A DNA stretch of 41,753 bases from Candidatus Doudnabacteria bacterium. Its GTDB lineage: Bacteria; Patescibacteriota; Doudnabacteria; UBA920; 2-01-FULL-46-14. Position numbers and translations under genes: made by a program. The stretch lies in the NCBI GenBank assembly GCA_023246055.1, contig JAHFJD010000004.1, forward strand, positions 1 to 41,753, in the 5' to 3' direction. Of the stretch, positions 17,220-40,533 are shown one piece after another; position 1 is the stretch's first letter; each line of letters begins with the position of its first letter. The notes under the pieces were generated by a model that saw nothing but the letters and a program-made list of their open reading frames with translations, ran no database searches and was not told the DNA's origin.

Positions 17220-18578
17220 TCAAAACAGAACGTTTTGTTTTTTTGAGTCAAATTTTCCTCTCTCCCCTTCTTCAAAGACTTTAATAATCCCATAAACTCC
17301 GTCGTAACCCGGTGTTTTTATCACCCGCTCTTCACGCACACGTTTAACCGCTTCGGCCACCAGCTCTCCGGCGACTGTCTTCAAATCCTCAATCGGCAGA
17401 TCGAGAATCACGGCAAATTCACTGCCCGCTCGGCGGATAAGCTTCCAATAAATATCCTGAATCTTTTTGCTCTTGGAGCCAACCTCAAAACAGTCAGCCA
17501 ATACTTCCTCAAGCGGCACCAAGTGTTTTTGGGGGATGAAATTTTTCGGAACAAATCCTTCCGGCCGATCTGCAAGATCACTGACTCGGGACACCACTCC
17601 GACGACTAACCCGCGACCGCAGACTGGGCAACGGCCACCGGCTCGGCGCGTTTGATCGGGAGTATAGAAAATTTTGCACGGTCCATGACCATCAAGGTGA
17701 TATTTCCCCTCTTCGGGAAAATACTCGATAGTGTATTTGAGGCGTGTGCGGTCTTTCTCTTTGAGGATTCGGAAATATTCAGCATAAGATAATGCGTCCT
17801 CCGGAATCTCCATGACTGTAGCCTCGCGCCCAATGCGCGGCAGAGAATGGGCATCCGAAGCGGAAACGATCGAGAAGCGATCCGTGATCGACACACGCCA
17901 ATTCATAGCCGGATCAGAGGATAGGCCAGTCTCAAAAGCGTAAATATATTTTGTCATATCCCCAAAACATTCCTCGATCGAATCAAAACCGGATTTACTG
18001 CCAAAAATCCCGAAATACGGCGTCCAGGCGTGTGCCGGGATCATCAGCGCAGTCTCGTCTGCATCAAGCAAATATTTCAAAATCTCCACGGAATTCATGC
18101 CCAAAATCGGTCGGCCATCGCTTCCGAGTTTGGCCCCGCGTTTTTCCAAAGAATTCGTGAATTTTTCGACAGCCGCAAACGATGGCAAAAGCAATACATA
18201 ATGCACCCGCCGCATTTTCTTTTCGCCCTGGGAATAGATACAGGCCACCTCGGATGACAGTATAAATCTCACCCCTCCCTCGCCCTCCCCCTCCAGGGGA
18301 GGGAAATTCGTATTTATTCCTTCCCCTTGTCCCACTTTTATTCCCCTCCCTTGATGGGAGGGGCTGGATGAGGGTGATCGTAATTTAAAAAATCCCTGTT
18401 CTGCTTCCTCCAGCTTTTCTCGGAGTTCCGCTCTCCACCCTGGATGCGTAAAATCACCCGTGCCCAGGAGATTGACGCCTTTGATCCGCCCCCATTTGTC
18501 TAAATTTTCCGGAATCAAATCCCGGGAACACGCCCGGGAATATTTGGAATGGATATGGATATCGGAGATAACACGCAT
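17220..18578 (-). CDS. endonuclease Q-family PHP protein, with in-frame repeat insertion
   Basis: DIHIHSKYSRA, GTGDFTHP, PAHAWTP, ETGLSSD, SDAHS, PEEGKYH, GYDGVYG. Confidence 0.9.
   Translation of the reverse strand: MRVISDIHIHSKYSRACSRDLIPENLDKWGRIKGVNLLGTGDFTHPGWRAELREKLEEAEQGFFKLRSPSSSPSHQGRGIKVGQGEGINTNFPPLEGEGEGGVRFILSSEVACIYSQGEKKMRRVHYVLLLPSFAAVEKFTNSLEKRGAKLGSDGRPILGMNSVEILKYLLDADETALMIPAHAWTPYFGIFGSKSGFDSIEECFGDMTKYIYAFETGLSSDPAMNWRVSITDRFSIVSASDAHSLPRIGREATVMEIPEDALSYAEYFRILKEKDRTRLKYTIEYFPEEGKYHLDGHGPCKIFYTPDQTRRAGGRCPVCGRGLVVGVVSRVSDLADRPEGFVPKNFIPQKHLVPLEEVLADCFEVGSKSKKIQDIYWKLIRRAGSEFAVILDLPIEDLKTVAGELVAEAVKRVREERVIKTPGYDGVYGIIKVFEEGERGKFDSKKQNVLF
18269..18377. repeat. family A composite element inside the EndoQ-like CDS
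   Basis: TCACCC...two hairpins...GGGTGA. Confidence 0.85.
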
Positions 18579-18671
18579 AATATGGATTATAAACAAAAGA
18601 GAGGCGAACCACAAAGGGTTCGCCCCACTAACAGGGGTTGTTACCAATTAAGAAGCACTATGTTGCCGGCC

Positions 18672-18824
18672 TTAAGGTCTACGGCTCGGACTTTTTTTGC
18701 TTCGGTGCGAGGATAACCGTTTGCGGTGAATTAATTGCTCCACTAGAACGTCTAGGGCAGCCTGTTTGCCGCTTGTGCTGGTTCGCGGATCCCGCTTCTT
18801 CTTGTGATCTCTGTGACCGCTCAT
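18672..18824 (-). CDS. 50-aa basic small protein; not in the ORF track
   Basis: GAGGAGG SD; MSGHRDHKKKRDPRTSTSGKQAALDVLVEQLIHRKRLSSHRSKKSPSRRP. Confidence 0.45.
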   Translation of the reverse strand: MSGHRDHKKKRDPRTSTSGKQAALDVLVEQLIHRKRLSSHRSKKSPSRRP

Positions 18825-18862
18825 AGATCCTCCTCTCGTTCAGGGGTTCCTTCCGATCACTG

Positions 18863-19180
18863 TTAATTACTTCCAGACGCGAATGCCCGCATATGCTCTA
18901 CGAGTTGCGGGATATGTAGATGGAATTTGCGGTCCAGTTGTGCACGCATACGAAGCGCATGCAAAGCCGCAACGACAGCTCCCCAGGACCTGGAATTTGA
19001 ACAATGCGGAAAAATCAATCCGCACTCCGCCGGACTGCCCATGCAGAACCGCCACAATTTGCCCTTCTCGTCCCGAAATACCCACATCTCTGAATTGCAG
19101 AGATTGCAGCGTCGGTCGTCCTCTTTCACAAATGCAGGATTACCGGTATCGTGAATGTACACGCCTTCTTCTTTTCGCAT
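18863..19180 (-). CDS. hypothetical zinc-ribbon-like protein
   Basis: AGGAGG SD; CNLC and C..C motifs. Confidence 0.55.
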   Translation of the reverse strand: MRKEEGVYIHDTGNPAFVKEDDRRCNLCNSEMWVFRDEKGKLWRFCMGSPAECGLIFPHCSNSRSWGAVVAALHALRMRAQLDRKFHLHIPQLVEHMRAFASGSN

Positions 19181-19242
19181 GAAGTCCTCCTGAATGACCG
19201 CAATACATAATATTAAAACAAGCCTGGCTTTTCAGCAAGCCT

Positions 19243-19280
19243 ACCTCTCACCCTACCCTCTCCCCATCAAGGGCGAGGAA
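19243..19280. repeat. family A element (degenerate)
   Basis: CCTCTCACCCTA-CCCTCTCCCCATCAAGGGCGAGG. Confidence 0.7.
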
Positions 19281-19616
19281 TCAATTGGGGAAATCCATCC
19301 GAAACTCGAGACCGTGATCGGCAAATCCAAATTTTTTGTAATAGCCATGCACGTCTTGTTTCTCGTGCCGCGCTGTGCAGATAAGTTTATAACATCCCCG
19401 AGCTTTCGCTTCCGCGATTACAACTTCTATAAGTTTCGAACCAACGCCCTGTTTGCGGTGGGATTCATCTACAAACACATCCTCCATAAAACCAAACGAA
19501 TCTTCATGTAGATCGTTTTTCAAAATATACAAATAAGCGCGACCAACGGTTTGACCATTTTCAGTGGCTAGGAATTTGATACCGGTTGCGCTAATTTGTT
19601 GTCGCTCAATTTGCAT
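19281..19616 (-). CDS. GNAT family N-acetyltransferase
   Basis: EDVFVD..HRKQGVG motif A. Confidence 0.9.
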   Translation of the reverse strand: MQIERQQISATGIKFLATENGQTVGRAYLYILKNDLHEDSFGFMEDVFVDESHRKQGVGSKLIEVVIAEAKARGCYKLICTARHEKQDVHGYYKKFGFADHGLEFRMDFPN

Positions 19617-19621
19617 ATACT

Positions 19622-19658
19622 TAACCTCCCCAACCTCGCTCCTGCCCGAGGAGAGGAA
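19622..19658. repeat. family A element (degenerate); tail forms the SD of the GNAT gene
   Basis: Minus strand reads ...GGGGAGGTTAAGTAT-ATG. Confidence 0.65.
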
Positions 19659-19659
19659 T

Positions 19660-20640
19660 TTAGGAAACTAATCCATAAATAATCTTCGCGAGTTTTTTAC
19701 TGTCGTGCCGCAGAAAACTGCGCTGCAGAGCATCAGCCTTCACTTTACGATGATTATTTTTGGAAAGCAAATCTGCGGAGACCACTCGCACTCCCATTTT
19801 TTTCACAGCCTCGGGGTCTGGTTCCACAAATTTGGCCTTGGTTTTACGGTATTGGCTCAACACCGCGGGCTTTGGTATTTTCTTGTTCAGAATGACCAAA
19901 TCCAAACCTTTTGGACCCAGATATTTCTGCATCGCTTGCACGAAGTGCGAGACTTTGAAACTGTTAGTCTGGCCCCATTTGGTCATGAGGTTTACGATGA
20001 GGATTTTTTTGGCGCGCGACCTCTGTATCGCCGGAACAATGCCTTTGACTAGCAGATTGGGAACGGTGCTGGTATACAGGTCACCCGGCCCGAACACGAT
20101 CGCGTCTGCCTCTGTTATGAGACGCAAGGCCCGCGGATTGGCCGGACCGGAAGGATTCAATTTTAGATTCGTGATCTTCAAGGCGCCGTTGTGCCTCGGT
20201 TCGTCGATCGTATGCTCGCCGACAATCTTTTTACCGTTTTCGAGTATAGCCGTGAGTGTGGTCGGAAATTTCGTGACCGGCACGACCTGCCCGCGAACAT
20301 TGAGAATCTTGGCCGCGATCTTTATCGCCTCTTCATTGCTGCCCAGAGCTTTTTCCAATGCGGCCAGAATGATGTTTCCCGCAGTGTGGCCGGCAAGCGC
20401 GCCTTGATTAAAACGATAAGAAAAAAGTGCTTGCAGCGGCTTTTCCGTGTAGGAAAGCCCCAGCAAACATTGCCTGATATCCCCAGGCGGCATAATATCG
20501 AGCTCCTGGCGAAGCCTGCCAGTCGAGCCACCATCATCCGCGCTCGAGACAATTACCGCGTTGTTGGTTGGAAACTGCCGCAAACCAGAGAGAAGAGTTG
20601 AGGTTCCTGTTCCTCCGCCGATGATGACAATATTTTTCAT
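19660..20640 (-). CDS. yvcK: YvcK/GlmR (CofD-like) gluconeogenesis factor
   Basis: IGGGTG, DDGGSTGRLR, PPGDIR, GPGDLYTS. Confidence 0.92.
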   Translation of the reverse strand: MKNIVIIGGGTGTSTLLSGLRQFPTNNAVIVSSADDGGSTGRLRQELDIMPPGDIRQCLLGLSYTEKPLQALFSYRFNQGALAGHTAGNIILAALEKALGSNEEAIKIAAKILNVRGQVVPVTKFPTTLTAILENGKKIVGEHTIDEPRHNGALKITNLKLNPSGPANPRALRLITEADAIVFGPGDLYTSTVPNLLVKGIVPAIQRSRAKKILIVNLMTKWGQTNSFKVSHFVQAMQKYLGPKGLDLVILNKKIPKPAVLSQYRKTKAKFVEPDPEAVKKMGVRVVSADLLSKNNHRKVKADALQRSFLRHDSKKLAKIIYGLVS

Positions 20641-20654
20641 TGCTTGTTCTTTCT

Positions 20655-20710: not shown

Positions 20711-20720
20711 AAATTGATCC

Positions 20721-21950
20721 TTAATTTATCACTTTTAATTCTCTACCAACCTCTTCAAAAGCCGCAATGGCTTTATCGAGATGTTCTCGAGTATGGGCAG
20801 CGGAGAGCTGTACTCGGATCCGCGCTTTGCCTTTGGGGACTACGGGATAAGTAAATCCACGCACATAAATGCCTTTCTTGAATAGTGCTCCGGCCATATC
20901 AAAAGCTAATTTTTCTTCGCCCAGCATTACCGGAGTGATTGGATGTTTCCCGTCGCCTCCGAGTTTAAATCCCAGCTTGTCCATGGCAGATCGGAAATAA
21001 TTGGTATTGTCGCGCAGGGTTTCGAGTCGGGTACTGAACTCTATATCGAAATTCTTCAAAGTATAGAGCGCGGCCGCGGCAATCATGGGCGGCAAGGAAT
21101 TGGAAAAGAGCGAGGTGCGGGAACGTTGGCGCAAATATTCGATAATCTCTTTGCGACCCGCGGTAAACCCGCCGCCCGCCCCGCCTAGAGCCTTGCCAAA
21201 AGTTGAGGTGAGGATGTCCACACCACCCATAACGCCTGCCTGCTCAATACTGCTGCGACCAGTTTTGCCAAGCACTCCGGAAGCATGTGAATCATCCACC
21301 ATGACCATGGCCCCGTATTTGTCGGCCAAATCGCAGATTTCTTTTAGCTTGGCAGTATCGCCGTCCATGCTAAACACCCCGTCCGTGGCAATCAACATCC
21401 TCTTTCCCCTCCCTTGAGGGGAGGGGCTGGGGGAGGGTGATCTTGAAGAAAACTCTTTCAACTTCTCTTCCAAATCCCCCATGTCACTATGCTTGTATCG
21501 AAACCTTTCTGCTTTGCAAAGCCGCACACCGTCAATAATCGAAGCATGATTGAGCTCATCACTAAAAATCGCGTCCCCTTCCTGCAGAATGGTTTCGAAA
21601 AGCCCGGTGTTGGCATCAAAACACGAAGTGTAGAGAATCGCATCCTCTGTACCGAAAAATTTGGCGATTTCCGCTTCCAAGTCTTTGTGCACTGTCCCGG
21701 TACCGCAAATAAATCTCACCGAAGCCATACCGAAACCGTATCTTTCAAGTCCGTCTGCGGCCGCCGTTTGCATTTCCTCACTGCCAGCAAGACCCAAATA
21801 ATTGTTACCGCAGAAATTCAGAAGCTGCTTGCCGTCAACTTCAATTTCGGCTCCCTGTTTGCCGCTAATTGTCTTTTCCTCTTTCCACGTGCCAGCAAGA
21901 TGAATATCTTCCAAATCCTTTTCAAATTGTGATTTGTAGTTTGTGAACAT
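20721..21950 (-). CDS. kbl: glycine C-acetyltransferase (2-amino-3-ketobutyrate CoA ligase)
   Basis: [38 protein letters not shown]. Confidence 0.95.
21406..21440. repeat. family A half element inside kbl
   Basis: CCCCTCCCTTGAGGGGAGGGG-CTGGGGGAGGGTGA. Confidence 0.85.
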
Positions 21951-21952
21951 AA

Positions 21953-22663
21953 TTATTCTCTCTTTTTATAAACTGCCCATATCCTTGCAGTTTTTTTATC
22001 TGGTGTTTCTGCCGCTCTCAACTGTTCGTGTGGTTCTGCAGTGATCTCAAATCCATATTCTTCACCCAGTTGTCTCAACTCTTCTGCGCTGAAATAATGC
22101 TGGGCTATATCTTTTTTGATACCCTGTCGATCTGCACCAGTAAAGCCAAGTCCCTGCCCACGCATATCCTCGGTAATTTCCCTTTCTTCCGAATCATCAT
22201 TAACTGATCTACCCATGAACAGAAAATATTTCTCCGGTTTGAGGACTCTGTTTATTTCCTTGAATGATCCTCTCACTCCTTCAATATTATTGTGGTGGAT
22301 AGCGCCGGTACTGATGACAAAATCAAAGCTTCCGTCTCCAAACGGCAACTCGGCACTCTGGCCCTTTACGAAATTCGCTCGGAGATTCTGCTCTGCTAAC
22401 CTTCTCTGCGCTGCGCTGATCATCCCTTCTGACAAATCAAGGCCGGTGACATTAAATCCGTCCCGAGCCAAAGGCATAACATAACGCCCGTTTCCGCTGC
22501 CAACATCCAAAACATCGCGGCCCAATTCAGATTTGTGCTGTGCGCAGAATTGATTGAAAAATGGATCAGGGCCTTCGTCCTCTCTCCAGCCTCTCTCACC
22601 TTCTTTATCCCAGTAATCTCTGGCCTTTTCTAAATTGTTTGGTCGTAAATTTTCCGGTGGCAT
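21953..22663 (-). CDS. class I SAM-dependent methyltransferase
   Basis: [18 protein letters not shown]. Confidence 0.9.
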
Positions 22664-23970
22664 TACATTTGAATTAAAAATTTCGGATGATTATTGATCA
22701 TATTTTCAAACCGCTCTTTAGTGTACTCGCCAATCGGCAGAATAGTTCCTTGCCCTTGATCTAGTATAACATTATACAGCTTTTCCTGAATCTGGTTTTT
22801 GGGATCTTCGAGGAGTGCGCGTGTCATCTCCCACGTCCGCCAAATCTGCCGGCCGATTACAGCGTGCATGGTAAAACCATGCACTATGAGGCGGTTATAA
22901 TTCTCAATCACAAAATCACCGCTTTTGATGCCAAACAAAATGATCTCGCCACCGCGACGCGTGGCAAAGAGGCAATTGTTCACAGACGAGTTAAAACCAG
23001 ACATTTCAAACGACACATCCACCCCTACGCCTTTGGTGATGTTCATAATCTCGTCGGTGATTTCAGGATTGTGCGAATACATTTCACCCCTCCCTTGCCC
23101 TCCCCCTCGAGGGGAGGGAATAATACCGGGCTTCTCTGCATTTTCCTCCCCCTTGAGGGGGGATGTTGGGTGGGGGTGAGTTTTCAATGGAATGACGTAA
23201 TCTATCCCCAATTTCTTTGCCATGTTAATTGAAATTGGATTCGGCTCCACACCGATGATACTCTTCGCGCCCCTGGCCCTAGCAATCAGCAAGAGAAACA
23301 GTCCGATGGGTCCCAAACCAAAAATCGCCACTGTTTTGTCTTTCAGATCCACTTTGCTTGCAGCATGAACAGCGTTACCAAATGGCTCTTGCATGGCTGC
23401 TACCTCTGGCCGGATCTTGGCAGTGTTGGTTTTCCAGACAATGTGCGCTGGCACTCGGACATATTCTGCAAATCCTCCATCATGGGAAATACCCAAAATC
23501 TTCTCGTTAGTGCACACCTCTTTTTGCCCGCGTAGACACTGGTAGCATTGGTTACAAACCACGTGCGATTCACATGCTACAAAATCGCCTTTTTTGATCC
23601 CTTTCACACCTCTGCCAACCTCAACCACTTCTCCAAAGAATTCGTGACCAATTATTCTATAGGTATTTTCACCCCTCCCTTGCCCTCCCCCTCGAGGGGA
23701 GGGAATAGCCCCGGACTTTCCTGCATTTTCCTCCCCCTTGAGGGGGGAGGTTGGGTGGGGGTGAAATTCCGACTCTAAACTCCCCAAAATCTGCTCCTTG
23801 AACGCCTGCCGATACCAAATCCCCTTGTCTGACCCACACACGCCAGCATAATGGACCTTGATCATAACGTCCGTATCGCTTTCCACTTTGGGCATGGGCA
23901 CCTGCGCTAACTCGAAGCCAGTTGATTCATCCCACTTTGTTTTACTCTTGTCGAATATTAATGCGCGCAT
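22663..23970 (-). CDS. tdh: L-threonine 3-dehydrogenase-like Zn-dependent dehydrogenase with two in-frame repeat insertions
   Basis: GVCGSD, GHEF.G, ESHVVC..C..C, EPFGNAVH; near kbl. Confidence 0.88.
   Translation of the reverse strand: MRALIFDKSKTKWDESTGFELAQVPMPKVESDTDVMIKVHYAGVCGSDKGIWYRQAFKEQILGSLESEFHPHPTSPLKGEENAGKSGAIPSPRGGGQGRGENTYRIIGHEFFGEVVEVGRGVKGIKKGDFVACESHVVCNQCYQCLRGQKEVCTNEKILGISHDGGFAEYVRVPAHIVWKTNTAKIRPEVAAMQEPFGNAVHAASKVDLKDKTVAIFGLGPIGLFLLLIARARGAKSIIGVEPNPISINMAKKLGIDYVIPLKTHPHPTSPLKGEENAEKPGIIPSPRGGGQGRGEMYSHNPEITDEIMNITKGVGVDVSFEMSGFNSSVNNCLFATRRGGEIILFGIKSGDFVIENYNRLIVHGFTMHAVIGRQIWRTWEMTRALLEDPKNQIQEKLYNVILDQGQGTILPIGEYTKERFENMINNHPKFLIQM
23084..23179. repeat. family A 96-bp composite, copy 2 in tdh
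   Basis: TCACCC...GGGTGA, 32 codons. Confidence 0.95.
23669..23764. repeat. family A 96-bp composite, copy 1 in tdh
   Basis: 7 mismatches versus 23084-23179. Confidence 0.95.
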
Positions 23971-24137
23971 AAAATCAGCCAATCTCGCCCCGTAGTGAAC
24001 GGTACTCCGTTCTACTACTGGCGTCAAAACCGCGGGAATTGTCCCAATCTGTTTTGGCTTTATTGAATATTAACGCTTGCATAGAGATAATTTATATGAT
24101 AATGTTGGGAATCCACAACTCCAAGGGGGGCACATAA

Positions 24138-24700: not shown

Positions 24701-24763
24701 ATCCACCTCATCGGCGGACCGCGCTTCGCTTGTTTACTTTACAAAGAACTTACAATTTTCCGA

Positions 24764-24865
24764 TTCTCCCCCTCATGAGGGGGAGCTAAAGGGGGTCATA
24801 GTTGGCTTCGAAAATCTTCAAGGTTCTCTATTACCTCCCCTAACCCCTCCTCACGAGGAGGGGAA
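24764..24865. repeat. family A tail-to-tail pair
   Basis: CTCCCCCTCATGAGGGGGAG...CCCCTCCTCACGAGGAGGGG. Confidence 0.85.
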
Positions 24866-24872
24866 AATACTT

Positions 24873-26807
24873 TTATTCTACAGTAACTGATTTCGCTAGA
24901 TTCCTCGGCCGGTCGACATCGCGGCCCAAATTCACTGCTATATAATAGGCAAAGAGTTGCAAGGGAATGGTGTTGAGAAGCGGCTCGAGGAGTTCCATAG
25001 TTTTCGGCACAAATATTATATCATCGGCCACTTCTTTTGCTTCCTCATCGTCTTCCGACGCGATTATCAAGGTCCGCGCGCCCCGCGCCCGCGCTTCCAT
25101 AATATTACTTTTCATTTTTTCAAACAGCTGATTGCGCGTCAAAATTGCGACCACTGGGAAATCCTCGGACACGAGCGCGAGGGGGCCATGTTTCATTTCT
25201 CCTCCCGCATAACCCTCGCTATGAATATAGGAAATTTCTTTGAGCTTGAGCGAGCCTTCCAGCGCCACAGGGTAGTTTACCCCACGGCCGAGAAAAAACA
25301 TATTTTTATAATGAGCATATTTTTTGGCAATTTTTTTGATGTTTTCGGCCTGCTTCAAAATCTCATTCATCTTCCCTGGTATCTCGAGCAGAGATTCCAA
25401 AAATCTTTTCCCTGTTGCCACGTTAACGTGCTTTAGTCGTCCCAACTGCAAGGCATTGAGCAAAAGCAGAGCAACCATGTTAGTGTACGCTTTGGTGGAC
25501 GCCACAGCCATTTCTAGACCTGCGTGAATATACGAACCAGCTTTGGTCTCGCGAGCGATTGTCGAGCCGACCACATTGATAATCCCTCGAACATGCGCGC
25601 CTTTTCGCTTGGCCTCTCTCACAGCCATAATCGTATCCGCAGTCTCACCTGATTGTGAGACAGCATAGACCAAAGTTTTTTTATCAACGATCGGATCGCG
25701 ATAGCGAAATTCGCTGGAAAAATCCACCTCGCAAGGGACTTGCGCCAGTCTCTCAAACGCATATTTGCCGACAAGCCCGGCATAGTAAGCCGTACCGCCT
25801 GAAATGATATTGATTCTTTTCAAATCCCGCAGTTGATCCTCGCTGATATTCAATCCTCCAAGATGGGCTGTCCCCTCTTCCATATCTAACCGCCCACGGA
25901 TCGCGTCCTCAAACACTGTTGGCTGTTCCATGATTTCCTTGAGCATAAAATGCTCGTAACCGCCCTTTTGCGCCTTTGCCTGATCCCAATCAATTTGCAT
26001 CGTACCTTTAGTAATCAGTTCGTCTTTTAGATTGGAAATGCGCAGGTTGTCCCGTGAAATCTCCGCTACCTCACCATCATCGAGAAAAGTCACTTGTTTG
26101 GTATAGGCGAGCATAGGGGTCACGTCAGAAGCAATATAATGCTCCCCTTCAGCCACGCCCACAACCAAGGGACTGCCGAGCCTCGCGGCAATAATTTGGT
26201 CAGGGTGATCAGCGTGCACTGCCAAGAGTCCATATGTGCCACGGACATCGCTAAGGGCTCTGCGCACAGCATTAGCAAGTGTATTTTCACCCCCACCTTT
26301 ATCCTCCCCCCTCAAGGGGGAGGAATTCCCCTCCCTTGCCGTGCCCGCCGAAGCTTCGTGCGAAGGCTGGGAGGGGAGGGGTTGGGGGAGGGTGGAATAA
26401 TAATCCGCAATCAAATGTGCCAGCACCTCGCTGTCAGTATCTGATGTAAATTTATATCCTTTTTTAACAAGCTTCTTTTTGAGCTCGCGGTAGTTTTCAA
26501 TGATGCCATTGTGTACTATGGCCAATTTGCCATCCATTGCGACGTGCGGGTGAGCGTTTTCTTCAGTCACTCCGCCATGCGTAGCCCACCTGGTATGGGC
26601 AATACCGAGCGTACCAGGATAATTTGAGTCTTTCAATTTCCCGACAAGGTTATCAATCTTGCCTACAGCACGAACCCGCTCAATCTTGTTTTCATGTAAC
26701 AAGCAGATACCCGCGCTGTCATAGCCGCGATATTCCAAATCCCGCAGTCCTTGAACGAGGATGGGCAGGGCTTGTTTATTGCCAATGTATCCGACTATGC
26801 CACACAT
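24873..26807 (-). CDS. glmS: glutamine--fructose-6-phosphate transaminase with in-frame repeat insertion
   Basis: MCGIVG, HTRWATHG, SQSGETADT, PRNLAKSVTVE. Confidence 0.98.
   Translation of the reverse strand: MCGIVGYIGNKQALPILVQGLRDLEYRGYDSAGICLLHENKIERVRAVGKIDNLVGKLKDSNYPGTLGIAHTRWATHGGVTEENAHPHVAMDGKLAIVHNGIIENYRELKKKLVKKGYKFTSDTDSEVLAHLIADYYSTLPQPLPSQPSHEASAGTAREGNSSPLRGEDKGGGENTLANAVRRALSDVRGTYGLLAVHADHPDQIIAARLGSPLVVGVAEGEHYIASDVTPMLAYTKQVTFLDDGEVAEISRDNLRISNLKDELITKGTMQIDWDQAKAQKGGYEHFMLKEIMEQPTVFEDAIRGRLDMEEGTAHLGGLNISEDQLRDLKRINIISGGTAYYAGLVGKYAFERLAQVPCEVDFSSEFRYRDPIVDKKTLVYAVSQSGETADTIMAVREAKRKGAHVRGIINVVGSTIARETKAGSYIHAGLEMAVASTKAYTNMVALLLLNALQLGRLKHVNVATGKRFLESLLEIPGKMNEILKQAENIKKIAKKYAHYKNMFFLGRGVNYPVALEGSLKLKEISYIHSEGYAGGEMKHGPLALVSEDFPVVAILTRNQLFEKMKSNIMEARARGARTLIIASEDDEEAKEVADDIIFVPKTMELLEPLLNTIPLQLFAYYIAVNLGRDVDRPRNLAKSVTVE
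26287..26395. repeat. family A composite in glmS with a nested hairpin at 26344-26371
   Basis: TCACCC...GGGTGG; inner CCCGCCGAAGCTTCGTGCGAAGGCTGGG. Confidence 0.85.
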
Positions 26808-27265: not shown

Positions 27266-28108
27266 CTATAACTTATTCCAAACAAATTCAAAAATCATCT
27301 TTTGCGTCTCGTAAAGGCCCTGGTCTTCTATGATAACACCAACTGGTTCGCCTGTCGCGGACAAAGATATCATGGCCACTTTCCCACCGTAAATAATCAT
27401 ATAAGTCGGCGTGCTTTCTTTTTCTGACAGGCATCTCCGCTCATCAAGACCCGCGAGCTCCCCGCCTTTGCCAAAAGCAATAACCCGGTTGGCTACACCC
27501 GCCTTGATTCGATCTTTGTTGAAATTGGAATAAGCTTTGTAGAGATATTGTTTGATGTCAGATGAAGAGTAGACATAATAAGTTGAATTCATAACTCCCC
27601 TTCCACCCCCTCTTATCTTAAGAGGGGGAACTCCTCCCCTTAAACTAAGGGGAGGTTGGGAGGGGTTATTACTCATTGTCGCTAGCACGTCCTGCAAGAT
27701 GATTCTCAAGCCTGCGCTACCTTCATAATATTTGGCCACAGGCCGCGCGCCGGATTTTTCGTACAAGGATTCCAATTCTGGCAAAGATTTGCTAATATGA
27801 ACCTTAAGTGTGTCCAAAGACCGCTTCTTGTTTTCGACAGCATCGAGAAGCTTCTGCGGCGGCTCAGCCACGAAATACTGCTTTTTCTGATCTTTCCCGC
27901 CAGAGGTGGATCGAGATTGGTATTGCTTGTAAAAACTCACCACACCAAGCTTCAGAAGCCGCTCGAGAATGTCATAAGTGGTGCCGCGATTGACTTGTGA
28001 CTGTTTGGCTATCGCGCTTGCTGGTGCTGGACCTAAAGAAATCGAGGCCAAATATACAGAAATTTCCTTTTCATCTAGACCAAACTGTAGGAGATTTTCT
28101 ACAATCAT
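27266..28108 (-). CDS. TrmB-family wHTH regulator with in-frame repeat insertion
   Basis: FGL...E..VY.A...G...AS.IA..S.VNR.T.YD.L..L; C-terminal K..FE..W. Confidence 0.85.
   Translation of the reverse strand: MIVENLLQFGLDEKEISVYLASISLGPAPASAIAKQSQVNRGTTYDILERLLKLGVVSFYKQYQSRSTSGGKDQKKQYFVAEPPQKLLDAVENKKRSLDTLKVHISKSLPELESLYEKSGARPVAKYYEGSAGLRIILQDVLATMSNNPSQPPLSLRGGVPPLKIRGGGRGVMNSTYYVYSSSDIKQYLYKAYSNFNKDRIKAGVANRVIAFGKGGELAGLDERRCLSEKESTPTYMIIYGGKVAMISLSATGEPVGVIIEDQGLYETQKMIFEFVWNKL
27591..27669. repeat. family A composite inside the TrmB-like CDS
   Basis: ATAACTCC...CCCCTCTT/AAGAGGGG, CCTCCCCTTA/TAAGGGGAGG...GGGGTTAT. Confidence 0.85.
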
Positions 28109-28279
28109 TGACAGAAATCTTAAAATAATGATAAAATAAGGGTATCAAACGCTATTCTTATTGTCAAGTATCTTCTACAGAAATATGTTGATAATTCTAA
28201 ATAATTTACCCGCCCTTCCGAAGTCCCGTCTGACTTGACGGAGGAGGGTCAAGTGAAGTCTACAAAATTAAGAAGCAAC

Positions 28280-28364
28280 TTCTCCCCTTAAGCTAAGGGG
28301 AGATTGAGAGGGGTTATGAAATCCTCGTAACTCACCCGGCCCTCTCTTATCTTAAGAGAGGGAA
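28280..28364. repeat. family A tail-to-tail pair
   Basis: CTCCCCTTAAGCTAAGGGGAG...CCCTCTCTTATCTTAAGAGAGGG. Confidence 0.85.
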
Positions 28365-28374
28365 GAAAAGACCC

Positions 28375-29174: not shown

Positions 29175-29648
29175 TTAACGGGGATTGTATTTTTTTTGTA
29201 GACGTGAAAAATCATCAGCCAGCCGTATGGCATCGTGAAGCTCTGGAGAGGAAACTTCCAAAACCTGCACGTTATCCTTCGGGGCTGATATCCGGTGAAC
29301 AGTCTGCGCCTGGCAATGAAACACCATTCCGGGTTTGGCTTGAAATTTTTTCATATCAAGAGCAATGGTTGGATGCCCTTCGAGAACCAGCCAGCTTTCA
29401 GCTTTGATCTTGTGCTTTTGCAGAGAAAACCTCTTACCCTTTTCAAAATACATTATTTTTCCGGCATAGCGGTTGGTAAAAATCAGCCACACCTCCCCGC
29501 CCCAAGGCTTTTCCTGAGCAATCGGCTTCACAAGGCCACTCCCACCCCGGTGTAGAGCTTTGCTCACAGCAAATCCGTCTTTGTAGATTTTTATTTTTCC
29601 AAAACGTTTTTCGATGAGCTTGCGGATTGCGGAATTCATAACTTTCAC
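29175..29648 (-). CDS. cupin (mannose-6-phosphate isomerase-like)
   Basis: EKPWG.E, SLQKH..K.E, HRI, EVSSPEL.D.IRL.DD. Confidence 0.85.
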   Translation of the reverse strand: MKVMNSAIRKLIEKRFGKIKIYKDGFAVSKALHRGGSGLVKPIAQEKPWGGEVWLIFTNRYAGKIMYFEKGKRFSLQKHKIKAESWLVLEGHPTIALDMKKFQAKPGMVFHCQAQTVHRISAPKDNVQVLEVSSPELHDAIRLADDFSRLQKKYNPR

Positions 29649-29680
29649 CCCTCCCTTGCCCTCCCCCTCAAGGGGAGGGA
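29645..29680. repeat. family A half element filling the gap-cupin intergenic space
   Basis: TCACCCCTCCCTTG-CCCTCCCCTCAAGGGGAGGG; nearly identical to one half of the tdh inserts. Confidence 0.9.
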
Positions 29681-29681
29681 A

Positions 29682-30698
29682 TTATGTACTGATTCGATTA
29701 GCTAGATATTCGAGAAGGCTAGTGAGCTGGGTGACATAGCCCCATTCATTGTCATACCAGGCCAGGACGTTTACAAACGAGCCGTCCACGACCTCTGTGG
29801 ACAGCAAATCAATAGTCGCACCGGCAGGGTTGCCCTGATAATCGCGCGACACCAGGGGCAGGTCAGAAACCGCGAGTTGGCCTTTGAGATGAGTCTTACT
29901 GGCTTTGATAAATGCATCGTTAATAGTTTTTGCCATGGTCTTTTTATTCAATTGTGCGGAAAAGGCAAGAACGGACGGATCAAGCACTGGCACACGAAAC
30001 GACATGCCGGAAATTTTATCTTTAAGCTTTGGGAACATCTTGCCAATGGTTTGGGTGACACCTGTGGTTGATGGAATGATCGACTGACTTGCGGCCCTGG
30101 CGCGTCGCAAATCTCTATGGGAGTTGTCCACCAAGCTTTGATCAGATGTAAAGGCATGGACTGTGTTGATGAAACCCCGCTGGATGCCGAAATTTTCTTC
30201 GAGGACTTTCACAACGAGCGAGGAACAGATAGAGGTGCATGAGGCCCCGGATATTATTTTGTGCTTTTTTGGATCAAAAGTTTTGTGATTTACCCCGTAA
30301 ACCAGCGTGGCTTCTAGGTCGTGGCCGGGCGCGCTCACCACCACGTACCTGGCGCCGGCTTTAATATGCTGTGCGGCTTCTGCACGATTCTTATGTTTTC
30401 CGGTAGCGTCCAAGACCAAGTCGGTTTTGTACTTCCGCCAGGGCAAATCAAAGCTCTCGGTTTCTTGGATGAATGGAACGGCCTTGCCTTCAATAACTAA
30501 ATTCTTTCCCTTCACCTTCACTTCTTTGTCCCACAAGCCATAGGTAGAATCATATTTGAGAAGGTGCGCGTAGGTTTCGAGATCGGAACGGCTGTTGCTA
30601 GCCACAATCTCAAAATGCGGATTATTCCAGGCAATCCGGAGAAATATCCGGCCGATTCTCCCCAGTCCATTTATCGCAAGTCTAATTGGTTTTGCCAT
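29682..30698 (-). CDS. gap: type I glyceraldehyde-3-phosphate dehydrogenase
   Basis: INGLGRIGR, ASCT, WYDNEWGY. Confidence 0.93.
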   Translation of the reverse strand: MAKPIRLAINGLGRIGRIFLRIAWNNPHFEIVASNSRSDLETYAHLLKYDSTYGLWDKEVKVKGKNLVIEGKAVPFIQETESFDLPWRKYKTDLVLDATGKHKNRAEAAQHIKAGARYVVVSAPGHDLEATLVYGVNHKTFDPKKHKIISGASCTSICSSLVVKVLEENFGIQRGFINTVHAFTSDQSLVDNSHRDLRRARAASQSIIPSTTGVTQTIGKMFPKLKDKISGMSFRVPVLDPSVLAFSAQLNKKTMAKTINDAFIKASKTHLKGQLAVSDLPLVSRDYQGNPAGATIDLLSTEVVDGSFVNVLAWYDNEWGYVTQLTSLLEYLANRIST

Positions 30699-34570: not shown

Positions 34571-35437
<867 letters not shown>

Positions 35438-35641
35438 TAGAGTAGCTTTTATCCGTTGAGCTTCCACCATACCACTATGGATGGTCGGATCACTAACTTC
35501 CACTTTCGTGCCTGCGCGGCGTGCTTGCCTTGCAGTTAAGCCAGCTTATGCGTTTGCACGACCAGCGCGATTTCCATCCGCGCCTAGCTGACCTTTAAAC
35601 GCCTCCGTTACCTTTTAGGCAATTATGTTACTCGTTCTTCT

Positions 35642-35722
35642 TTCTCCCCTTCGTGAGGGGGAGATTAAGAGGGGGTTATGGAATTCATAACCTCCCCTAG
35701 CCCCTCCTCACGAGGAGGGGAA
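35642..35722. repeat. family A pair in the P9 region of the L2262 intron
   Basis: Same architecture as 24764-24865. Confidence 0.85.
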
Positions 35723-35792
35723 CGGGTACGCGCATTTCTGCCGCACTCTGCATGTCGCCATGCAGTTCAGACTATATCACTATCCTCACCTT

Positions 35793-35864
35793 GTCATGCC
35801 CGACCTGATCGGGCATCCAGACACAAAGGACTGGATTCCTCCGCCTTAGGCGGACGGGAATGAC
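35793..35864. repeat. family B element in P8 of the L2262 intron
   Basis: GTCATGCCCG...CTGGATTCC[TCCGCCTTAGGCGGA]CGGGAATGAC. Confidence 0.85.
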
Positions 35865-35913
35865 AGAAAAGGATACTCGGCGTGTAGTCGTTGAGGATTA
35901 TAATTTATGCTTA

Positions 35914-36156
35914 TCAAGATTCAGGTTGTCTATTCTCCAACCAATCTTTAATTGATGTTTTAACACCAACTACTATTCCGTTTTCAGTTATGGCCTCTTC
36001 ACCGGGTCTGAAAGCATAAAATTTACCTTCCGGCGAGATGACCCCCAGTCTGCCTTTTGCAGTAGTCCATTCTCCTTTTTCATTTTGACCAGGTTGAACC
36101 GTTAGTCTTTGTTCCGAGTCTGGACTAACTGAAAACTCTTTCCCTTTATTTGACAT
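35914..36156 (-). CDS. 80-aa intron-encoded protein of unknown function
   Basis: ATG with AGGAAAGGA SD; fills L6 exactly; same strand as the rRNA. Confidence 0.65.
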   Translation of the reverse strand: MSNKGKEFSVSPDSEQRLTVQPGQNEKGEWTTAKGRLGVISPEGKFYAFRPGEEAITENGIVVGVKTSIKDWLENRQPES

Positions 36157-36726
36157 AAATTATCCTTTCCTGCTGGTTGTCTGCACCAAGCTGATTTTCA
36201 CTTTGGCACATAAACCATTAATTAGGTTTATTATACCAAAGTACAGTTGGATACTCCAGATGTTCCAGCATATAGCCAAGTTTTTTTCTTCTAATGTTGC
36301 CATTAGAGGGCCCGGTATGACGCTTCCTCGACAAAAAGTCAAGGCGTAACGTATCGCGCCATACTTCCAGGCAACCGCCCCAGTTAAACTACCCACGAGC
36401 CACTGTCCCTGTGATGGTTAATCACGGGTTAGAATCAAAATTCATTCAGGGTGGTATTTCATATTGCGACTCCTCTCGAGCTAGCGCCCGAGACTCAAAG
36501 TCTCCCACCTATACTAAACAGAACAAATCTTGACCCAATGACACGCTATAGTAAAGCTTCATAGGGTCTTTCCGTCTTGCTGCGGGTAAACGGCATCTTT
36601 ACCGATAATGCAAATTCATCGAGCTATTTGTTAAGACAGTCCCCCACTCGTTATGCCATTCGTGCGGGTCGTAACTTACACGACAAGGAATTTCGCTCGG
36701 ACCATTGTTACTCATTCCGTGTAATA

Positions 36727-36817
36727 TTCCTCCCCCTCGATGGGGGAGGTTAGGTTAGGTGGGGGTGATTATTTAATAATTCACCCTTCCCTTGCCCCTC
36801 CCATCAAGGGAGGGGAA
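36727..36817. repeat. family A pair in the P9 region of the L1931 intron
   Basis: CCTCCCCC/GGGGGAGG...GGGTGA and TCACCC...CCCCTCCC/GGGAGGGG. Confidence 0.85.
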
Positions 36818-36898
36818 TAAATCCCGGAATTGGTGCGATCGTTTCCGTCGCACTCTCTGTGTCGCCACAGAGCTCGGACTCTATCTTCATCTTTGTCT

Positions 36899-36969
36899 GT
36901 CATCCCAAACTCGATTTGGGATCCACGTCATGAATTCCCTCCGCCAGATGGCGGATTCGCGGGAATGAC
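36899..36969. repeat. family B element in P8 of the L1931 intron
   Basis: GTCATCCC...GGGATCCA...ATTCCC[TCCGCCAGATGGCGGA]TTCGCGGGAATGAC. Confidence 0.85.
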
Positions 36970-38797
36970 AATCAAGAGGTGCAGCGTATAGTCTCTACGG
37001 GTTCGAATTACGTAATTAATTACGTAACAAGTCTTCCCTCGGAATTGTCTCATTGATGAGAGTTTTTCCGATATAGCTACATTTTACTATGGCAGCAAAA
37101 CCTTCTTTTCTGAAGTAAATTCCTCTACCATAGGACGATTATAGTTATCGCCGGCGTTCATCAGGGCTTGGCCCACCGGGTTGCCCCAGCGGGTTTAACC
37201 TTCTGACACTGGCCAGGCATCAGCCCGTATACATCAGCTTTTAGCTTTAGCACGGACCTGTGTTTTTGTTAAACAGTCGGGAGGGGGTCATTCGCTGCGA
37301 CCCCGTGTGATAGCGCTTGCGCGACATCACATGGGGCAGGCCATATACCGAAGGTACGGCCGCTTTTTTGCCGAGTTCCTGAACAAATATTGTCTCGTTC
37401 GCCTGAGGATACTCTCCTCATCCACCGGTGTCGGTTTGCGGTACGGTTGGCGCGAAATGTAAGGTTCGAACCTTTTCTTGGCACCTTGGGTCACACAAAT
37501 TTCCCTTGCGGGATTTCTCCAAATTTTCTAGCTTGTCCCGATAAATCGGAACGGCCTTCCGGATTTGCCTGAAAGACCATAGCTCTACGAATTCAGAAAC
37601 CTAAATAGTCAGATTAGGCTTGCACTACCATGATGCGTCAATCCGAAACAAATTTCGCGTCAGCGACGGAATATCAACCGTCTCATCCATCGCACGGCAC
37701 CATTGGGCACCGCACTTAGGGCCGGCTAACCCTGGGCTGATAAGCATTGCCCAGGAAACCTTGGATATTCGGCGTGCAGGATTCTCACCTGCATAATAAT
37801 TACTTATCCCAACATTCTCTCTTGTGAGCGCTCCACCGGCTCTCGCGAGTCCGACTTCGCAGCTGCTCACAATGCTCCTCTACCCCCTGCGCCTTGCGGC
37901 GCAGAGTCGTGTTTTCGGTACAAAGCTTAGCCCCTATACATTGTCGGCGCCCCTGTCCCTCTCCGCCTTCCGTAAAGTTGGCGGAGATTCGAGTAGTGAG
38001 TTGTTACACACTCTTTAAAGGGTGGCTACCTCTAAGCCAACCTCCTACCTGTCTTGGGACAGAAACATCCTTTACACTATAGCTTTGATTTGGGGACCTT
38101 AAACGACGATCTGGGCTCTTTCCCTTTGGACACATGAAGCTTAGACCTCACGGTCTGACTCCTCCGCATACGTTCCTGGTATTCAGAGTTTGATTCGAAC
38201 GAACGACTTGCGCCGCTCGATCCGATTCAGTGCTTTACCCCCAGAAACAAAACGGAAGGCTAGCCCTAAAGCTATTTCGAGGAGAACCAGCTATCACCCA
38301 GTTCGATTGGAATTTCTCCCCTACTCACAGCTCATCCCCTATTTTTGCAACAATAGTGGGTTCGGACCTCCCCCAAGTTTTACCTTGAGTTCATCCTGGC
38401 CATGAGTAGCTCACCGGGTTTCGGGTCTAACGCATACCACCAACCAGCGCTTCGCGCTGGAAATATCGATATATCGAAATATCGAAATCTCCAGTGCGTT
38501 AGCACTGGCAACGGGCTATTAACCCTCGCTTTCACTACGTCTACGCCCGTGTGACGGGCTTAAACAAGCGATATACGTTAACTCGTTGGGTCATTCTTCA
38601 ATAGGCACGACGTTGCCCACTGCTTCGCAGATGGGAATTTCAAATTTCCAATATCAAATGTCAAATGAAATGCATAAAGTGCATCCTTTTGAAATTTGTA
38701 ATTTGGCATTTGACATTCCTAACTGCGGAGCAGTTAGAGCTTCGTCTCCTTGTAGATATACGGTTTCAGATACTATTTCATCGCCCTCACCGGGCTG

Positions 38798-38839
<42 letters not shown>

Positions 38840-39507
38840 AAAAAGTATTTAGTCTTAGATCGTAGTCGACCCAGTTTCGTGCAAGCTTTCACGTGTCTTG
38901 CACTACTTAAGAACCAATCAGGAAACAATTGTGGTCTTTCGCGTACGGGACTATCACCCTCTGTGGTCCGCCTTTCCAGGCAGGTTCTACTAGACAACAC
39001 AAGAAATTTTTCCCTCGCTTTTACAGAAGCGATCGATTGGTCTTGCGACCCCTTATTCACAACGGCTGTAACCTTTAAAGAAATGCAACTCCTAATAAAT
39101 TAGAAACTACACCCCCAACATGAATAAGGTTTGGACTGTTCCCCTTTCGCTCGCCACTACTAGGGGAATGCAACCGATCTCGCCTCGCTCGCTCGGAAAT
39201 CCAAATTACAAAATCCAAATGTCAAAATTTGACATTTGAAATTTGAGCTTTGTCATTCCGTATCGAACGAAGTGAGATACGGTAATTGTTTTCTTTTCCA
39301 CATGCTACTGAGATGTTTCACTTCGCATGGTACCCGAACTCTATATACCACTATAGAGACTTCCGAGGTTTACTCGGAAAGGTTTCCCCATTCGGACATC
39401 CCCGGATCAAAGCTTGTTTGCCAGCTCCCCGAGGCGTATCGCCGGCTCCTGCGTCCTTCATCGGCTTTTTGTGCCAAGGCATCCACCGTATACCCTTATC
39501 GGTGTTT

Positions 39508-39603
39508 TAGACTAAACGCAGACTTACACTGACTGAAACGCAGACTTACGCAGAAAAAATTCCGCGTTCGTCTGCGTCTAGTCCGCGTAGTTCCGCGTCT
39601 AGT
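39508..39603. repeat. ACGCAGA-repeat hairpin abutting the 23S 5' end
   Basis: About 10-nt tandem units followed by complementary TCYGCGT units. Confidence 0.75.
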
Positions 39604-39722
39604 AGTTGACTAGCAGTTCATAATCGCTAGCTTGATCGCCATCAGATCTTGAAGAAAAATCTGACGCGCGATCAATTTGAATTTTACCCCGACCAGTCAG
39701 ACTGGTCTGGGGTTGCCATTTA

Positions 39723-39802
39723 CCCCGTTAGAAATCCCGTTTGAGACGAGACGACTAATCGGGGTAAATCCCGTAAAAAATCAGCAAAGATTTCTAACGG
39801 GG
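39723..39802. repeat. family C MITE-like element in the rRNA leader
   Basis: Same 14-bp inverted ends as 32020-32097, with a different interior. Confidence 0.9.
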
Positions 39803-40087
39803 TTTACTCATTTCACCCACCTAAATTTCTTGAGAAATTTTGGCGGGTTCATCCCACCAAACGCGTTCGTTGGTTTGGTGAGATATATTCAGTTGTTAAA
39901 GTTCTTGCCATGCTTACTCACTTACCGCTTACTGCATACTACTCTTTACTCCCACAATCCACTCCGATCTAGATCGGGGTGAATTCTAGGAACAAATTCA
40001 ACACCAGATTTCGTATTTTCGTACAGATTCGCCCGCCTGCCAGACGCTTCTAGCGTCAGCGATTGCGGGCAGGTATTTCGTAGTACT

Positions 40088-40112
40088 AAAAAACCGCCTT
40101 TGGGAGGCGGCT
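40088..40112 (-). terminator. intrinsic terminator-like hairpin inside the rRNA leader
   Basis: GCCGCCU-CCCAA-AGGCGGU followed by U5. Confidence 0.6.
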
Positions 40113-40220
40113 CTCACATTCACACGAAAATGCAAGTCAGTTCGGCAACCGCCTGGTTTTTATGAATAATGTTTGCTCGTTTCGCATATTTTGCCTGTTT
40201 ATGGAGTTTCTCACACCCCC

Positions 40221-40308
40221 AGTATACTTGTTTTTCTCGAGAAAGTCAAGTTTTTTGAGGTATTTTAGAACGTAAAATCATTTTATGCTTCCCAACCTCT
40301 CATGTCAA
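40221..40308 (-). promoter_or_regulatory. tandem sigma70 promoters of the 23S-5S locus
   Basis: TTGACA-17-TAAAAT (40308-40280) and TTGACT-17-TATACT (40249-40221). Confidence 0.75.
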
Positions 40309-40358
40309 GGCTGAAGCTGTCCCCACCTTTTCCACAAAGGAGCGAAGCAACATTGAAA

Positions 40359-40533
40359 CCCTCTCCCCGAATGGGAGAGGGGGGACCGGTACTCCGGTGG
40401 GTGAGGGATGGTGTAGCCAAGGCTACGCAGTGCACGGCAAGCATTTATTTTCCCTCCCCAGGCGTGGGGAGGGATTAAGGGAGAGGTCGTCGGTTTTTAT
40501 TCCCCTCCTCGTGAGGAGGGGTTGGGGGAGGTT
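40359..40533. repeat. three family A elements (40359-40407, 40452-40489, 40502-40533)
   Basis: C/G hairpins, each followed by a G-rich tail. Confidence 0.85.

Follow-up and report, generated by a model that had tools for sequence, protein, structure and literature searches.

Triplex-compatible repeats in the genes, spacers and introns of a Doudnabacteria genome, with DUF559 nucleases as candidate partners

How short, strongly structured repeats come to lie inside housekeeping genes of a minimal bacterial genome, and which enzyme might place them there, is the question raised by a 41,753-nucleotide stretch of DNA from a Candidatus Doudnabacteria bacterium (Patescibacteria; GenBank assembly GCA_023246055.1, contig JAHFJD010000004.1), the whole of which is called the window here. 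The window is contig C50 of a 67-contig assembly of 1,164,896 bases with 47.6% G+C (genome label G000), 92.8% complete and 1.5% contaminated by CheckM-type estimates. Among named genomes, the glmS closest to its own is that of a Candidatus Magasanikbacteria metagenome-assembled genome, at 63% identity. The gene set of this genome comes from an own caller based on open reading frames (ORFs) and codon usage, not from a standard tool, and comprises 1179 genes at 84% coding. An earlier sequence-only reading of the window had described a very dense family of palindromes with a G-rich tail that lie in genes, intergenic spacers and introns. The best-supported account of these repeats, to which a little better than an even chance is given, is a partnership of nuclease and repeat of the type formed by repetitive extragenic palindromic (REP) sequences, their hairpin-forming doublets (REPINs) and the REP-associated tyrosine transposase (RAYT), with a different enzyme, the Vsr-like nuclease DUF559, and with a triplex-capable repeat. 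As part of the same account, and with the same confidence in the whole, the parsed sequences suggest that the repeats belong to the BoxC/PIT/TMECO type, as a family that has diversified.

The density of the family is real. The motif CCCTCCCC occurs 19 times in the window, against 1.5 copies expected and a maximum of 3 in 100 shuffles, and a structural scan finds 20 strict units in the window and 198 in the whole genome, about 17 per 100 kb. In a strict unit the pyrimidine/purine stem is perfect over 7 bp or more, the loop measures 3–9 nt and the tail obeys a triplet rule with at most one mismatch, the bases after the hairpin being scored against the reversed purine arm (G answering G, A or T answering A). 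The 198 units sit on 182 of the 229 pyrimidine/purine hairpins of the genome (458 hairpin-strand instances on both strands). An earlier and looser scan gave 189 matches, against 1, 0 and 3 in three Markov shuffles. A seed-profile nhmmer search gave 95 matches at E<0.01 with the strands mixed, and a MAFFT alignment of 20 units placed subfamilies one column off register; the structural scanner was used in place of both.

Each unit consists of a short T-rich lead, a C-rich arm of 7–10 nt, a loop of 3–9 nt, a complementary G-rich arm, a short linker, a G-rich tail and a T. The hairpin and the G-rich tail had been recognised from the beginning; what had been missed is that the tail is a mirror image of the purine arm and not a copy of it, the feature of the BoxC/PIT/TMECO class, and that it varies with the arm type. 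The mirror match is perfect in 130 units and has one mismatch in the other 68, whereas a direct-repeat rule gives 18 perfect matches. When the linker is fixed at 0, 1, 2, 3, 4, 5, 6, 7 or 8 nt, the 458 hairpin instances yield 0, 1, 5, 111, 6, 2, 0, 5 and 1 perfect mirror matches, respectively, and the direct-repeat rule never yields more than 7 at any of these lengths; the linker is 3 nt long in 148 of the 198 units. Of the 110 unique units whose arms are asymmetric and whose tails are G-rich, 68 are perfect; permuting the tails among the arms 1000 times gives 15.4 on average and never more than 26. The 1679 aligned triplets comprise 1176 G.G, 251 A.A, 184 T.A and 68 others, and 1611 (96%) are canonical. 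There are 50 distinct arms with matching tails, arms and tails co-varying, and at the first insert site of the tdh gene an odd base has shifted in concert in all three segments between G000 and its relative G003. Since copying by a polymerase produces direct or inverted repeats but never mirror repeats, the pattern points to selection on the fold. The mirror code points to the signature of a class II intrastrand purine-motif (reverse-Hoogsteen) triplex, in which the tail would run antiparallel to the purine arm, and the three-way covariation over 50 arm types provides comparative evidence for selection on the triplex-compatible sequence itself.

Class II intrastrand triplex motifs have been described by Holder et al. 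(2015; PMC4666352, which cites Hoyne et al. 2000 on these elements), including one G/C-rich family, earlier named BoxC and PIT, with a second loop of 3 nt. The passages of that paper on E. coli report circular dichroism and nuclear magnetic resonance evidence that the BoxC/TMECO sequence forms a stable triplex in vitro, and state that the E. coli copies are always intergenic and without a link to mobile elements, yet associated with local genome variability. TMECO is reported there from proteobacterial genomes as one conserved sequence, with no enzyme link found, and purine-motif triplexes are said not to form in RNA. All 198 units of G000 have the class II order on one strand (pyrimidine arm, loop, purine arm, loop, purine-rich third strand), and their antiparallel third strands are built of G.G-C, A.A-T and T.A-T triplets with at most one mismatch. 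The published TMECO pattern itself matches 10 copies in G000 and none when reversed as a control; the remaining 188 units have other arms. A pair on contig C30 of G000 agrees with the E. coli phnE–phnD BoxC pair in its arms, in its tail (with T and A in the same places), in both linker types and in its tail-in order; the BLAST match to E. coli BoxC is weak (E 0.6 at a limit of 10), the likeness resting on the parsed architecture. The TMECO pattern is present in 21 of 401 sampled genomes of the phylum, and the reversed control in none.

The resemblance to BoxC/PIT/TMECO thus extends to the class II order, the triplet code, the occurrence as singles and inverted pairs and the patchy distribution among close relatives. 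Unlike the E. coli copies, 60% of the units here lie in called coding sequences (CDSs) and others in group I introns, so the intergenic location seen in E. coli does not hold in G000; the intergenic-only rule is known from E. coli, and the published motif tables for other species may list coding-region motifs. The family also differs from BoxC/TMECO in its density (about 17 units per 100 kb) and in having 50 arm types instead of one conserved sequence, and from published TMECO in its host, which belongs to the Patescibacteria and not to the proteobacteria, and in that DUF559 genes are bracketed by units. A literature search, with subscription journals outside its scope, returned nothing on triplex repeats in the candidate phyla radiation (CPR), on triplex repeats inside genes or on any tie between such repeats and DUF559. 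To our knowledge, neither a function nor an origin of the BoxC/PIT triplex repeats has become known since the 1990s. Intrastrand triplex repeats belong to a small set of abundant bacterial repeats for which no origin, partner or function is known.

Singles and inverted pairs both occur, as the sequence-only reading had stated. The structural scan of G000 resolves 99 singles, 18 tails-inward pairs (14 of them intergenic), 16 hairpins with a tail on both sides (12 in CDSs), 12 tails-outward pairs (9 in CDSs), 2 tandem pairs and one triple. The strand of the units relative to local GC skew divides 72 to 100, with no clear replication bias. Twelve relatives were scanned in the same way in samples of 67–100 kb per genome. 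Within the family, the density per 100 kb is 17 in G000, 0 in G001, 13 in G002, 7 in G003, 18 in G004, 20 in G005, 1.5 in G006, 1.2 in G007 and 7 in G008, and G007 and G008 belong to one genus; in other families of the order it is 0 in G010, G019 and G029 and 8 in G035. Shuffled controls of these samples contain no units.

The window holds no mobilising enzyme, as had been noted, and the suggestion to look for nuclease genes flanked by the same hairpins proved fruitful elsewhere in the genome: a search of G000 for genes with units on both sides led to a DUF559 gene. Six DUF559 proteins of G000 match PF04480 with E values of 1e-32 to 1e-39 and a solved Neisseria protein (3hrl) with an E value of 1.4e-17, which places them in the Vsr/DUF559 clade of PD-(D/E)XK nucleases. 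The roles described for the Vsr/DUF559/DUF2726 clade in the consulted part of the literature (PMC3424549) are T/G mismatch nicking and, for one member, group I intron homing. A search of the DUF559 literature, judged mainly by title, found no role with repeats described. In one of the six proteins (L220, contig C30:29156–29479), N replaces, by eye, the D that precedes FYCP in the other five, and this protein may be inactive.

Nine genomes of the family contain 7, 6, 5, 4, 3, 3, 2, 2 (one broken gene) and 0 DUF559 matches, and the two unit-poorest of them have a broken gene or none (a broken gene in G007; neither genes nor units in G001). Of these 32 matches 28 were analysed, the omitted ones being G008:C10:68917, the second fragment of the broken G007 gene and the weak, partial matches G006:C19 and G000:C43. 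Units lie within 150 nt on both sides of 17 of the 28 genes, mostly at 3–67 nt, and on one side of 6, against a chance of about 0.02–0.03 per side for a unit start in a 150-nt window (about 0.026 in G000, from 198 units in 1.165 Mb). The tails point inward in 16 of the 17 doubly flanked loci. In 28 further genomes of the phylum, 28 DUF559 loci (30 less L199 and L201, already in the family set) include 12 that are bracketed and 8 with one unit. The distance from the end of the 5' tail to the chosen start codon is 2–18 nt in most cases, the 5' tail occupying the position of a ribosome-binding site, and the 3' unit begins at or before the stop codon. A maximum-likelihood tree of 52 DUF559 proteins, with 2 proteins longer than 200 aa left out, resolves four clades with good support, and every one of them has a pair of arm types of its own. 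The tail-in pairs at 24,763 and 35,640 of the window carry the two arm types found at the ends of the clade-1 cassettes, in matching order, and look like cassettes without a gene. DUF559 is present in 17 of the 21 genomes with the TMECO pattern and in 72 of the 380 others (odds ratio 18, p 6e-9, which is overstated because relatives are not independent). In other phyla, a strict unit lies within 150 nt in four of eight DUF559 loci (two Synechocystis plasmids, Deinococcus and Azospirillum). The N. gonorrhoeae locus has strict units only 223–325 nt downstream and an upstream unit found by eye; by eye, too, Picosynechococcus and Pseudanabaena show units with short arms, and E. coli H240 an imperfect BoxC-like relic downstream of the gene. 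This bracketing provides the first concrete candidate enzyme for intrastrand triplex repeats.

Several Patescibacteria have a DUF559 domain within open frames of 700–1240 aa (for example G351:C1:305553, G074:C77:20828, G415:C31:23001 and G329:C195). These may be either fusions to larger proteins or the result of in-frame read-through of cassettes.

REP and REPIN sequences are short structured repeats that occur as singles and inverted doublets; the RAYT (Y1) gene is bracketed by inverted repeats, and many copies are orphans. The present system shares with them the singles and inverted doublets, the bracketed small enzyme gene, the many orphan copies and the stability of some enzyme loci across taxa. 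An enzyme gene bracketed by inverted repeats, with doublets common, is found here for DUF559 and not for RAYT: there is no Y1, the bracketed gene encoding a PD-(D/E)XK Vsr-like nuclease, the repeat carries a third-strand domain, and the copies are largely intragenic.

In the proposed mechanism, one DNA strand of a unit would fold into a hairpin and the tail would enter its major groove as a third strand through G.G-C, A.A-T and T.A-T triplets. The DUF559 nuclease would recognise or cut its cognate folded units on transiently single-stranded DNA. The cassette of unit, DUF559 gene and unit would be the autonomous or master form, and the nuclease would spread non-autonomous copies in the shape of solitary units, of tail-in pairs that lack a gene (the BoxC form) and of tail-out doublets. 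Copies in genes would survive only if they kept the frame and fell in a tolerant surface loop, being translated into a peptide rich in Pro and Gly, and some intergenic copies would have been co-opted as ribosome-binding sites. The code, the density, the residence in frame, the polymorphism, the bracketing and the match of clades to arms are observations; the three central steps, namely the fold on single-stranded DNA, the action of the nuclease and the resulting spread of units, are what we infer. The wider proposal that BoxC/PIT repeats at large are the non-autonomous partners of DUF559, that a widespread RAYT–REPIN-like system recognises a folded triplex and that it has remodelled some CPR housekeeping proteins in frame is more tentative and falls somewhat short of an even chance; if true, dozens of housekeeping proteins would have been remodelled in this way in some CPR bacteria.

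A number of observations weigh against this partnership. The pages of PMC4666352 on E. coli report no in-vivo footprint of a stable triplex and the formation of duplex when the complement is present. A nearby strict unit is missing at 5 of the 28 family loci and 8 of the 28 phylum loci of DUF559, and the units point outward from the gene in the two Synechocystis plasmids. The 92.8%-complete assembly contains no cognate DUF559 gene for the arm types most frequent in the window. A genome of the same phylum (G358; family f27; 94% complete) contains 37 TMECO copies and no DUF559 match at E<=1e-5, and one E. coli chromosome with BoxC contains no PF04480 match; G358 has the look of an orphan bloom, as in E. 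coli. Four of nine sister cassettes share their locus across genera, which makes movement of the cassettes themselves a rare event. Neither a target-site duplication nor a common target was seen by eye at 54 junctions of filled and empty sites. The doublets in genes show a permuted, tails-outward order that the model leaves unexplained; this order is what a circle or a tandem junction would give.

The alternative that survives best, although still unlikely, takes DUF559 as a guest, a free-standing gene of the homing-endonuclease type that settles in pre-existing tail-in pairs while the repeats spread by other means. It predicts the same static pattern of bracketing, fixed orientation and matching between clades and arms, the Vsr/DUF559 clade does include a homing endonuclease of group I introns (PMC3424549, in the part consulted), and many genomes and arm types have units without a nuclease. 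Against it, the gene is tightly built into the units, with a tail as its ribosome-binding site and an ORF that often runs into the 3' unit; the unit-free genome G001 has no DUF559 gene and G007, with its broken gene, has only 1.2 units per 100 kb; and the spread of the repeats is left without an explanation.

It is a good deal less probable that the units are ordinary hairpins of the REP type or of the type of MITEs (miniature transposable elements with inverted repeats), the mirror tail being a feature of protein recognition or of composition for which the triplex is irrelevant. Hairpins, inverted pairs and a patchy distribution would all be expected of such elements, and the lack of a stable in-vivo triplex for BoxC in the source cited above fits them as well. 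Copying, on the other hand, cannot create mirror symmetry, the register is fixed at a 3-nt linker, and the substitutions stay within the purine-motif code in 96% of the 1679 triplets. The Y1/RAYT domain (PF01797) has no match in G000, the same search being positive as a control in 6 of 14 genomes, and no rve integrase was found in G000. The inverted ends of two DDE_Tnp_1 (IS4/5-type) genes of G000 are unrelated to the units, and a classical MITE is not supported, since the units share no terminal inverted repeats with these two insertion sequences and no duplication was seen by eye at the 54 junctions. The sequence-only reading, which had called the system REP/MITE-like, is supported in part, namely as to a very dense family made of short palindromes. 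G000 further contains a Cas12f/TnpB-like zinc-ribbon match in a 750-aa open frame (C67:1222–1413) and reverse-transcriptase loci at C40:3287–3895, C52:3508–3942 and C31:207–849, one of them split.

The position of the units relative to genes bears on the next alternative. In G000, 119 units lie inside 79 called CDSs, 69 are intergenic and 10 lie at gene edges. A stricter count, limited to genes of at least 150 aa with a good coding score and to units with 90 nt or more of ORF on each side, leaves 89 units deep inside 56 solid genes. In-frame residence therefore concerns 56 to 79 of about 1180 called genes of a minimal genome. A spanning homologous alignment from about 1.15 Mb sampled from relatives covers 53 of the 119 CDS units, the other 66 having no homologue in the sampled relatives to confirm the gene call. 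Among the 53 testable units, 27 face a gap in at least one relative, 7 are shared and 36 face dissimilar residues. Orthologous sites thus show presence/absence polymorphism. Sixteen of the 79 units outside called CDSs lie within 15 nt of a start codon, and several fill the whole spacer between co-directional genes, as would suit regulatory modules (a ribosome-binding site with a hairpin, terminator or attenuator) that were selected where they stand and are not mobile. Such modules are nevertheless highly improbable as a general explanation, given the 119 of 198 units inside CDSs, the others in introns, the empty orthologous sites and the introduction of PMC4666352, according to which PIT elements have neither promoter nor terminator activity.

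Still more remote is the view that the units are G-quadruplex (or i-motif) elements: the commonest subfamilies do have four G-runs, but the canonical four-run motif (runs of at least 3 G with short loops) is found in only 35 of the 198 units, and the mirror rule also holds in the subfamilies that have two G-runs.

The intragenic copies are without exception in frame and free of stop codons, and no gene is broken into out-of-frame halves by any of the 79 units outside called CDSs, of which five in fact lie inside genes missed by the caller. Core length modulo 3 shows no difference between CDS and intergenic units, so the frame is not set by the core. Removal of the inserts from RNA, or their bypass by the ribosome, which would leave the proteins unchanged and which the sequence-only reading had kept in view, is unlikely to the point of deserving hardly any credence, since removal would lift the constraint on frame that every intragenic copy obeys. 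The encoded peptides are rich in Pro and Gly, as had been noticed in the window (P 19.4% and G 18.5%, against 4.4% and 7.3% in the proteome), and also in Ser and Glu. The C-rich tail leads on the sense strand in all insertions of the window, but this does not hold genome-wide, where 67 CDS units are C-sense and 52 G-sense (36 and 27 among single units); the mild bias agrees with the open frames available in each orientation, 2.07 and 1.55 of 3, respectively.

Six in-frame insertions of the window lie in five genes (Table 1), as first described, and each of these genes has at least one relative with an empty site. In EndoQ, query residues 89–125 face chain residues 66–68 of 5zb8, and the doublet site is a 90-nt gap in the relatives G029 and G006. 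The kbl unit is a 36-nt insert relative to G003 and G007 and is common to G000 and G002. The two tdh inserts, placed on the solved Pyrococcus enzyme 2d8a, are identical at 90 of 99 columns. Of seven orthologues from the same family, one (G002) has an empty first tdh site, one has a short unrelated stretch there and one the same subfamily; two have other subfamilies and two a different palindromic family. The second site is empty in G002, G003, G007, G008 and G032 and filled only in G000 and, by that different family, in G004. The tdh loops are shared landing sites for unrelated elements. The glmS insert is common to G000 and G008 and absent in G003, G004 and G007 (the last of the same genus as G008) and in five more distant glmS genes, and G005 has a different subfamily at this site. 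In the tdh genes of G004 and G005 (L002 and L003), the different palindromic family lies in the same loops and in frame, with other terminal inverted repeats and another type of peptide. An AlphaFold2 model of tdh from 8 aligned orthologues has a mean predicted local distance difference test score of 52, with the inserts as low-confidence coil; it is too weak for use, and the alignments to PDB structures were taken in its place. The scale of residence shows in what way essential enzymes, tdh, glmS, kbl and EndoQ among them, can gain loops from such elements, and the inserts matter for the annotation and structure prediction of CPR proteins.

Rickettsia palindromic elements (RPEs), to which the sequence-only reading had compared these insertions, are about 150 bp long, encode a conserved peptide and have 44 genic insertions in R. 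conorii according to the part of PMC10969869 that treats them. As there, in-frame palindromes lie in many unrelated housekeeping genes and appear compatible with function. Unlike RPEs, the units here are 30–40 nt and the doublets 70–110 nt long, and 119 units are found in 79 called genes of a 1.16-Mb genome. The comparison may stand as an analogy of outcome, namely in-frame insertion, and does not extend to membership.

Table 1. Repeat units of the window and the genes and introns that contain them (positions are those of the window)
Feature	Position	Strand	Remarks
Single unit, intergenic spacer	7667..7709	+	End of G-rich tail 5 nt before ATG (7711), placed like a Shine-Dalgarno sequence
Single unit between two minus-strand genes	12043..12084	+	Minus-strand purine arm 12 nt before start codon at 12033
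Endonuclease Q (EndoQ) gene, in-frame insert	17220..18647	-	PDB 5zb8, E 5.7e-51
Tail-out doublet inside EndoQ	18268..18378		Strict unit 18268-18306 (-); degenerate partner ~18339-18378 (+)
kbl (2-amino-3-ketobutyrate CoA ligase-like aminotransferase), in-frame insert	20721..21950	-	Pfam PF00155
Single unit inside kbl, C-rich on sense strand	21403..21441	+	
tdh (L-threonine 3-dehydrogenase), two in-frame inserts	22663..24027	-	True start probably 23970
tdh insert 2, tail-out doublet	23083..23181		Between residues 217 and 223 of 2d8a_A
tdh insert 1, tail-out doublet	23668..23766		Between residues 49 and 63 of 2d8a_A
Tail-in pair between convergent genes	24763..24866		
glmS, in-frame insert	24873..26807	-	
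Doublet inside glmS (108 nt)	26286..26396		Strict unit 26286-26327 (-); partner loop holds a further hairpin
TrmB-like regulator, in-frame insert	27266..28108	-	Pfam PF01978
Tail-out doublet inside TrmB-like gene (72 nt)	27589..27671		Site empty in G004 and G007
Tail-in pair between divergent genes	28278..28365		
Single unit filling 33-nt spacer, gap (29682-30698) to cupin gene (29175-29648)	29644..29682	-	
Group I intron, 764-nt insertion in 23S rRNA	35605..36368	-	
Tail-in pair, 3' part of 764-nt intron	35640..35723		Beyond Rfam intron match 35748-36329
Group I intron, 427-nt insertion in 23S rRNA	36704..37130	-	
Pair, 3' part of 427-nt intron	36724..36818		36724-36766 (+, 8-nt linker); strict unit 36780-36818 (-)
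Two units in direct order, upstream of rRNA genes	40448..40536	+	Inside weak ORF 40397-40966

The rRNA operon of the window (33406–39495) has a 23S gene interrupted by three group I introns, with ORFs of 194 aa (34698–35282) and 80 aa (35914–36156) in or near them. The presence of copies in these introns had been described correctly: two of the three carry a unit pair 3' of the Rfam match, that is, after P9. The weak ORF upstream of the rRNA genes encodes 189 aa with a low coding score and no Pfam match, and is probably not a real gene.

A search of sequencing runs for this DNA returned three DNA runs of one groundwater study and none of RNA, and the metagenome contigs of these three were compared with the window from 17200 to 30700. 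Some of them stop at units, and none joins across an insert as an empty site, contigs being unable to show rare variants. The depth of the unit sequences themselves (23742 of the window and neighbouring units) rises to about 900 (run X1) and about 670 (run X3), where the organism is nearly absent, so the same units must be widespread among other members of the aquifer community. Unrelated to these units is a second palindromic element, which measures about 56 nt and has three hairpins and a terminal inverted repeat of its own. It lies in the intergenic spacer at 20655–20710 and also occurs on the minus strand at 34306–34315, 35855–35864 and 36960–36969, in all three group I introns. It has 3 full copies in the genome, and its k-mer bin in the metagenome has a depth of 3294, against about 15 for the organism.

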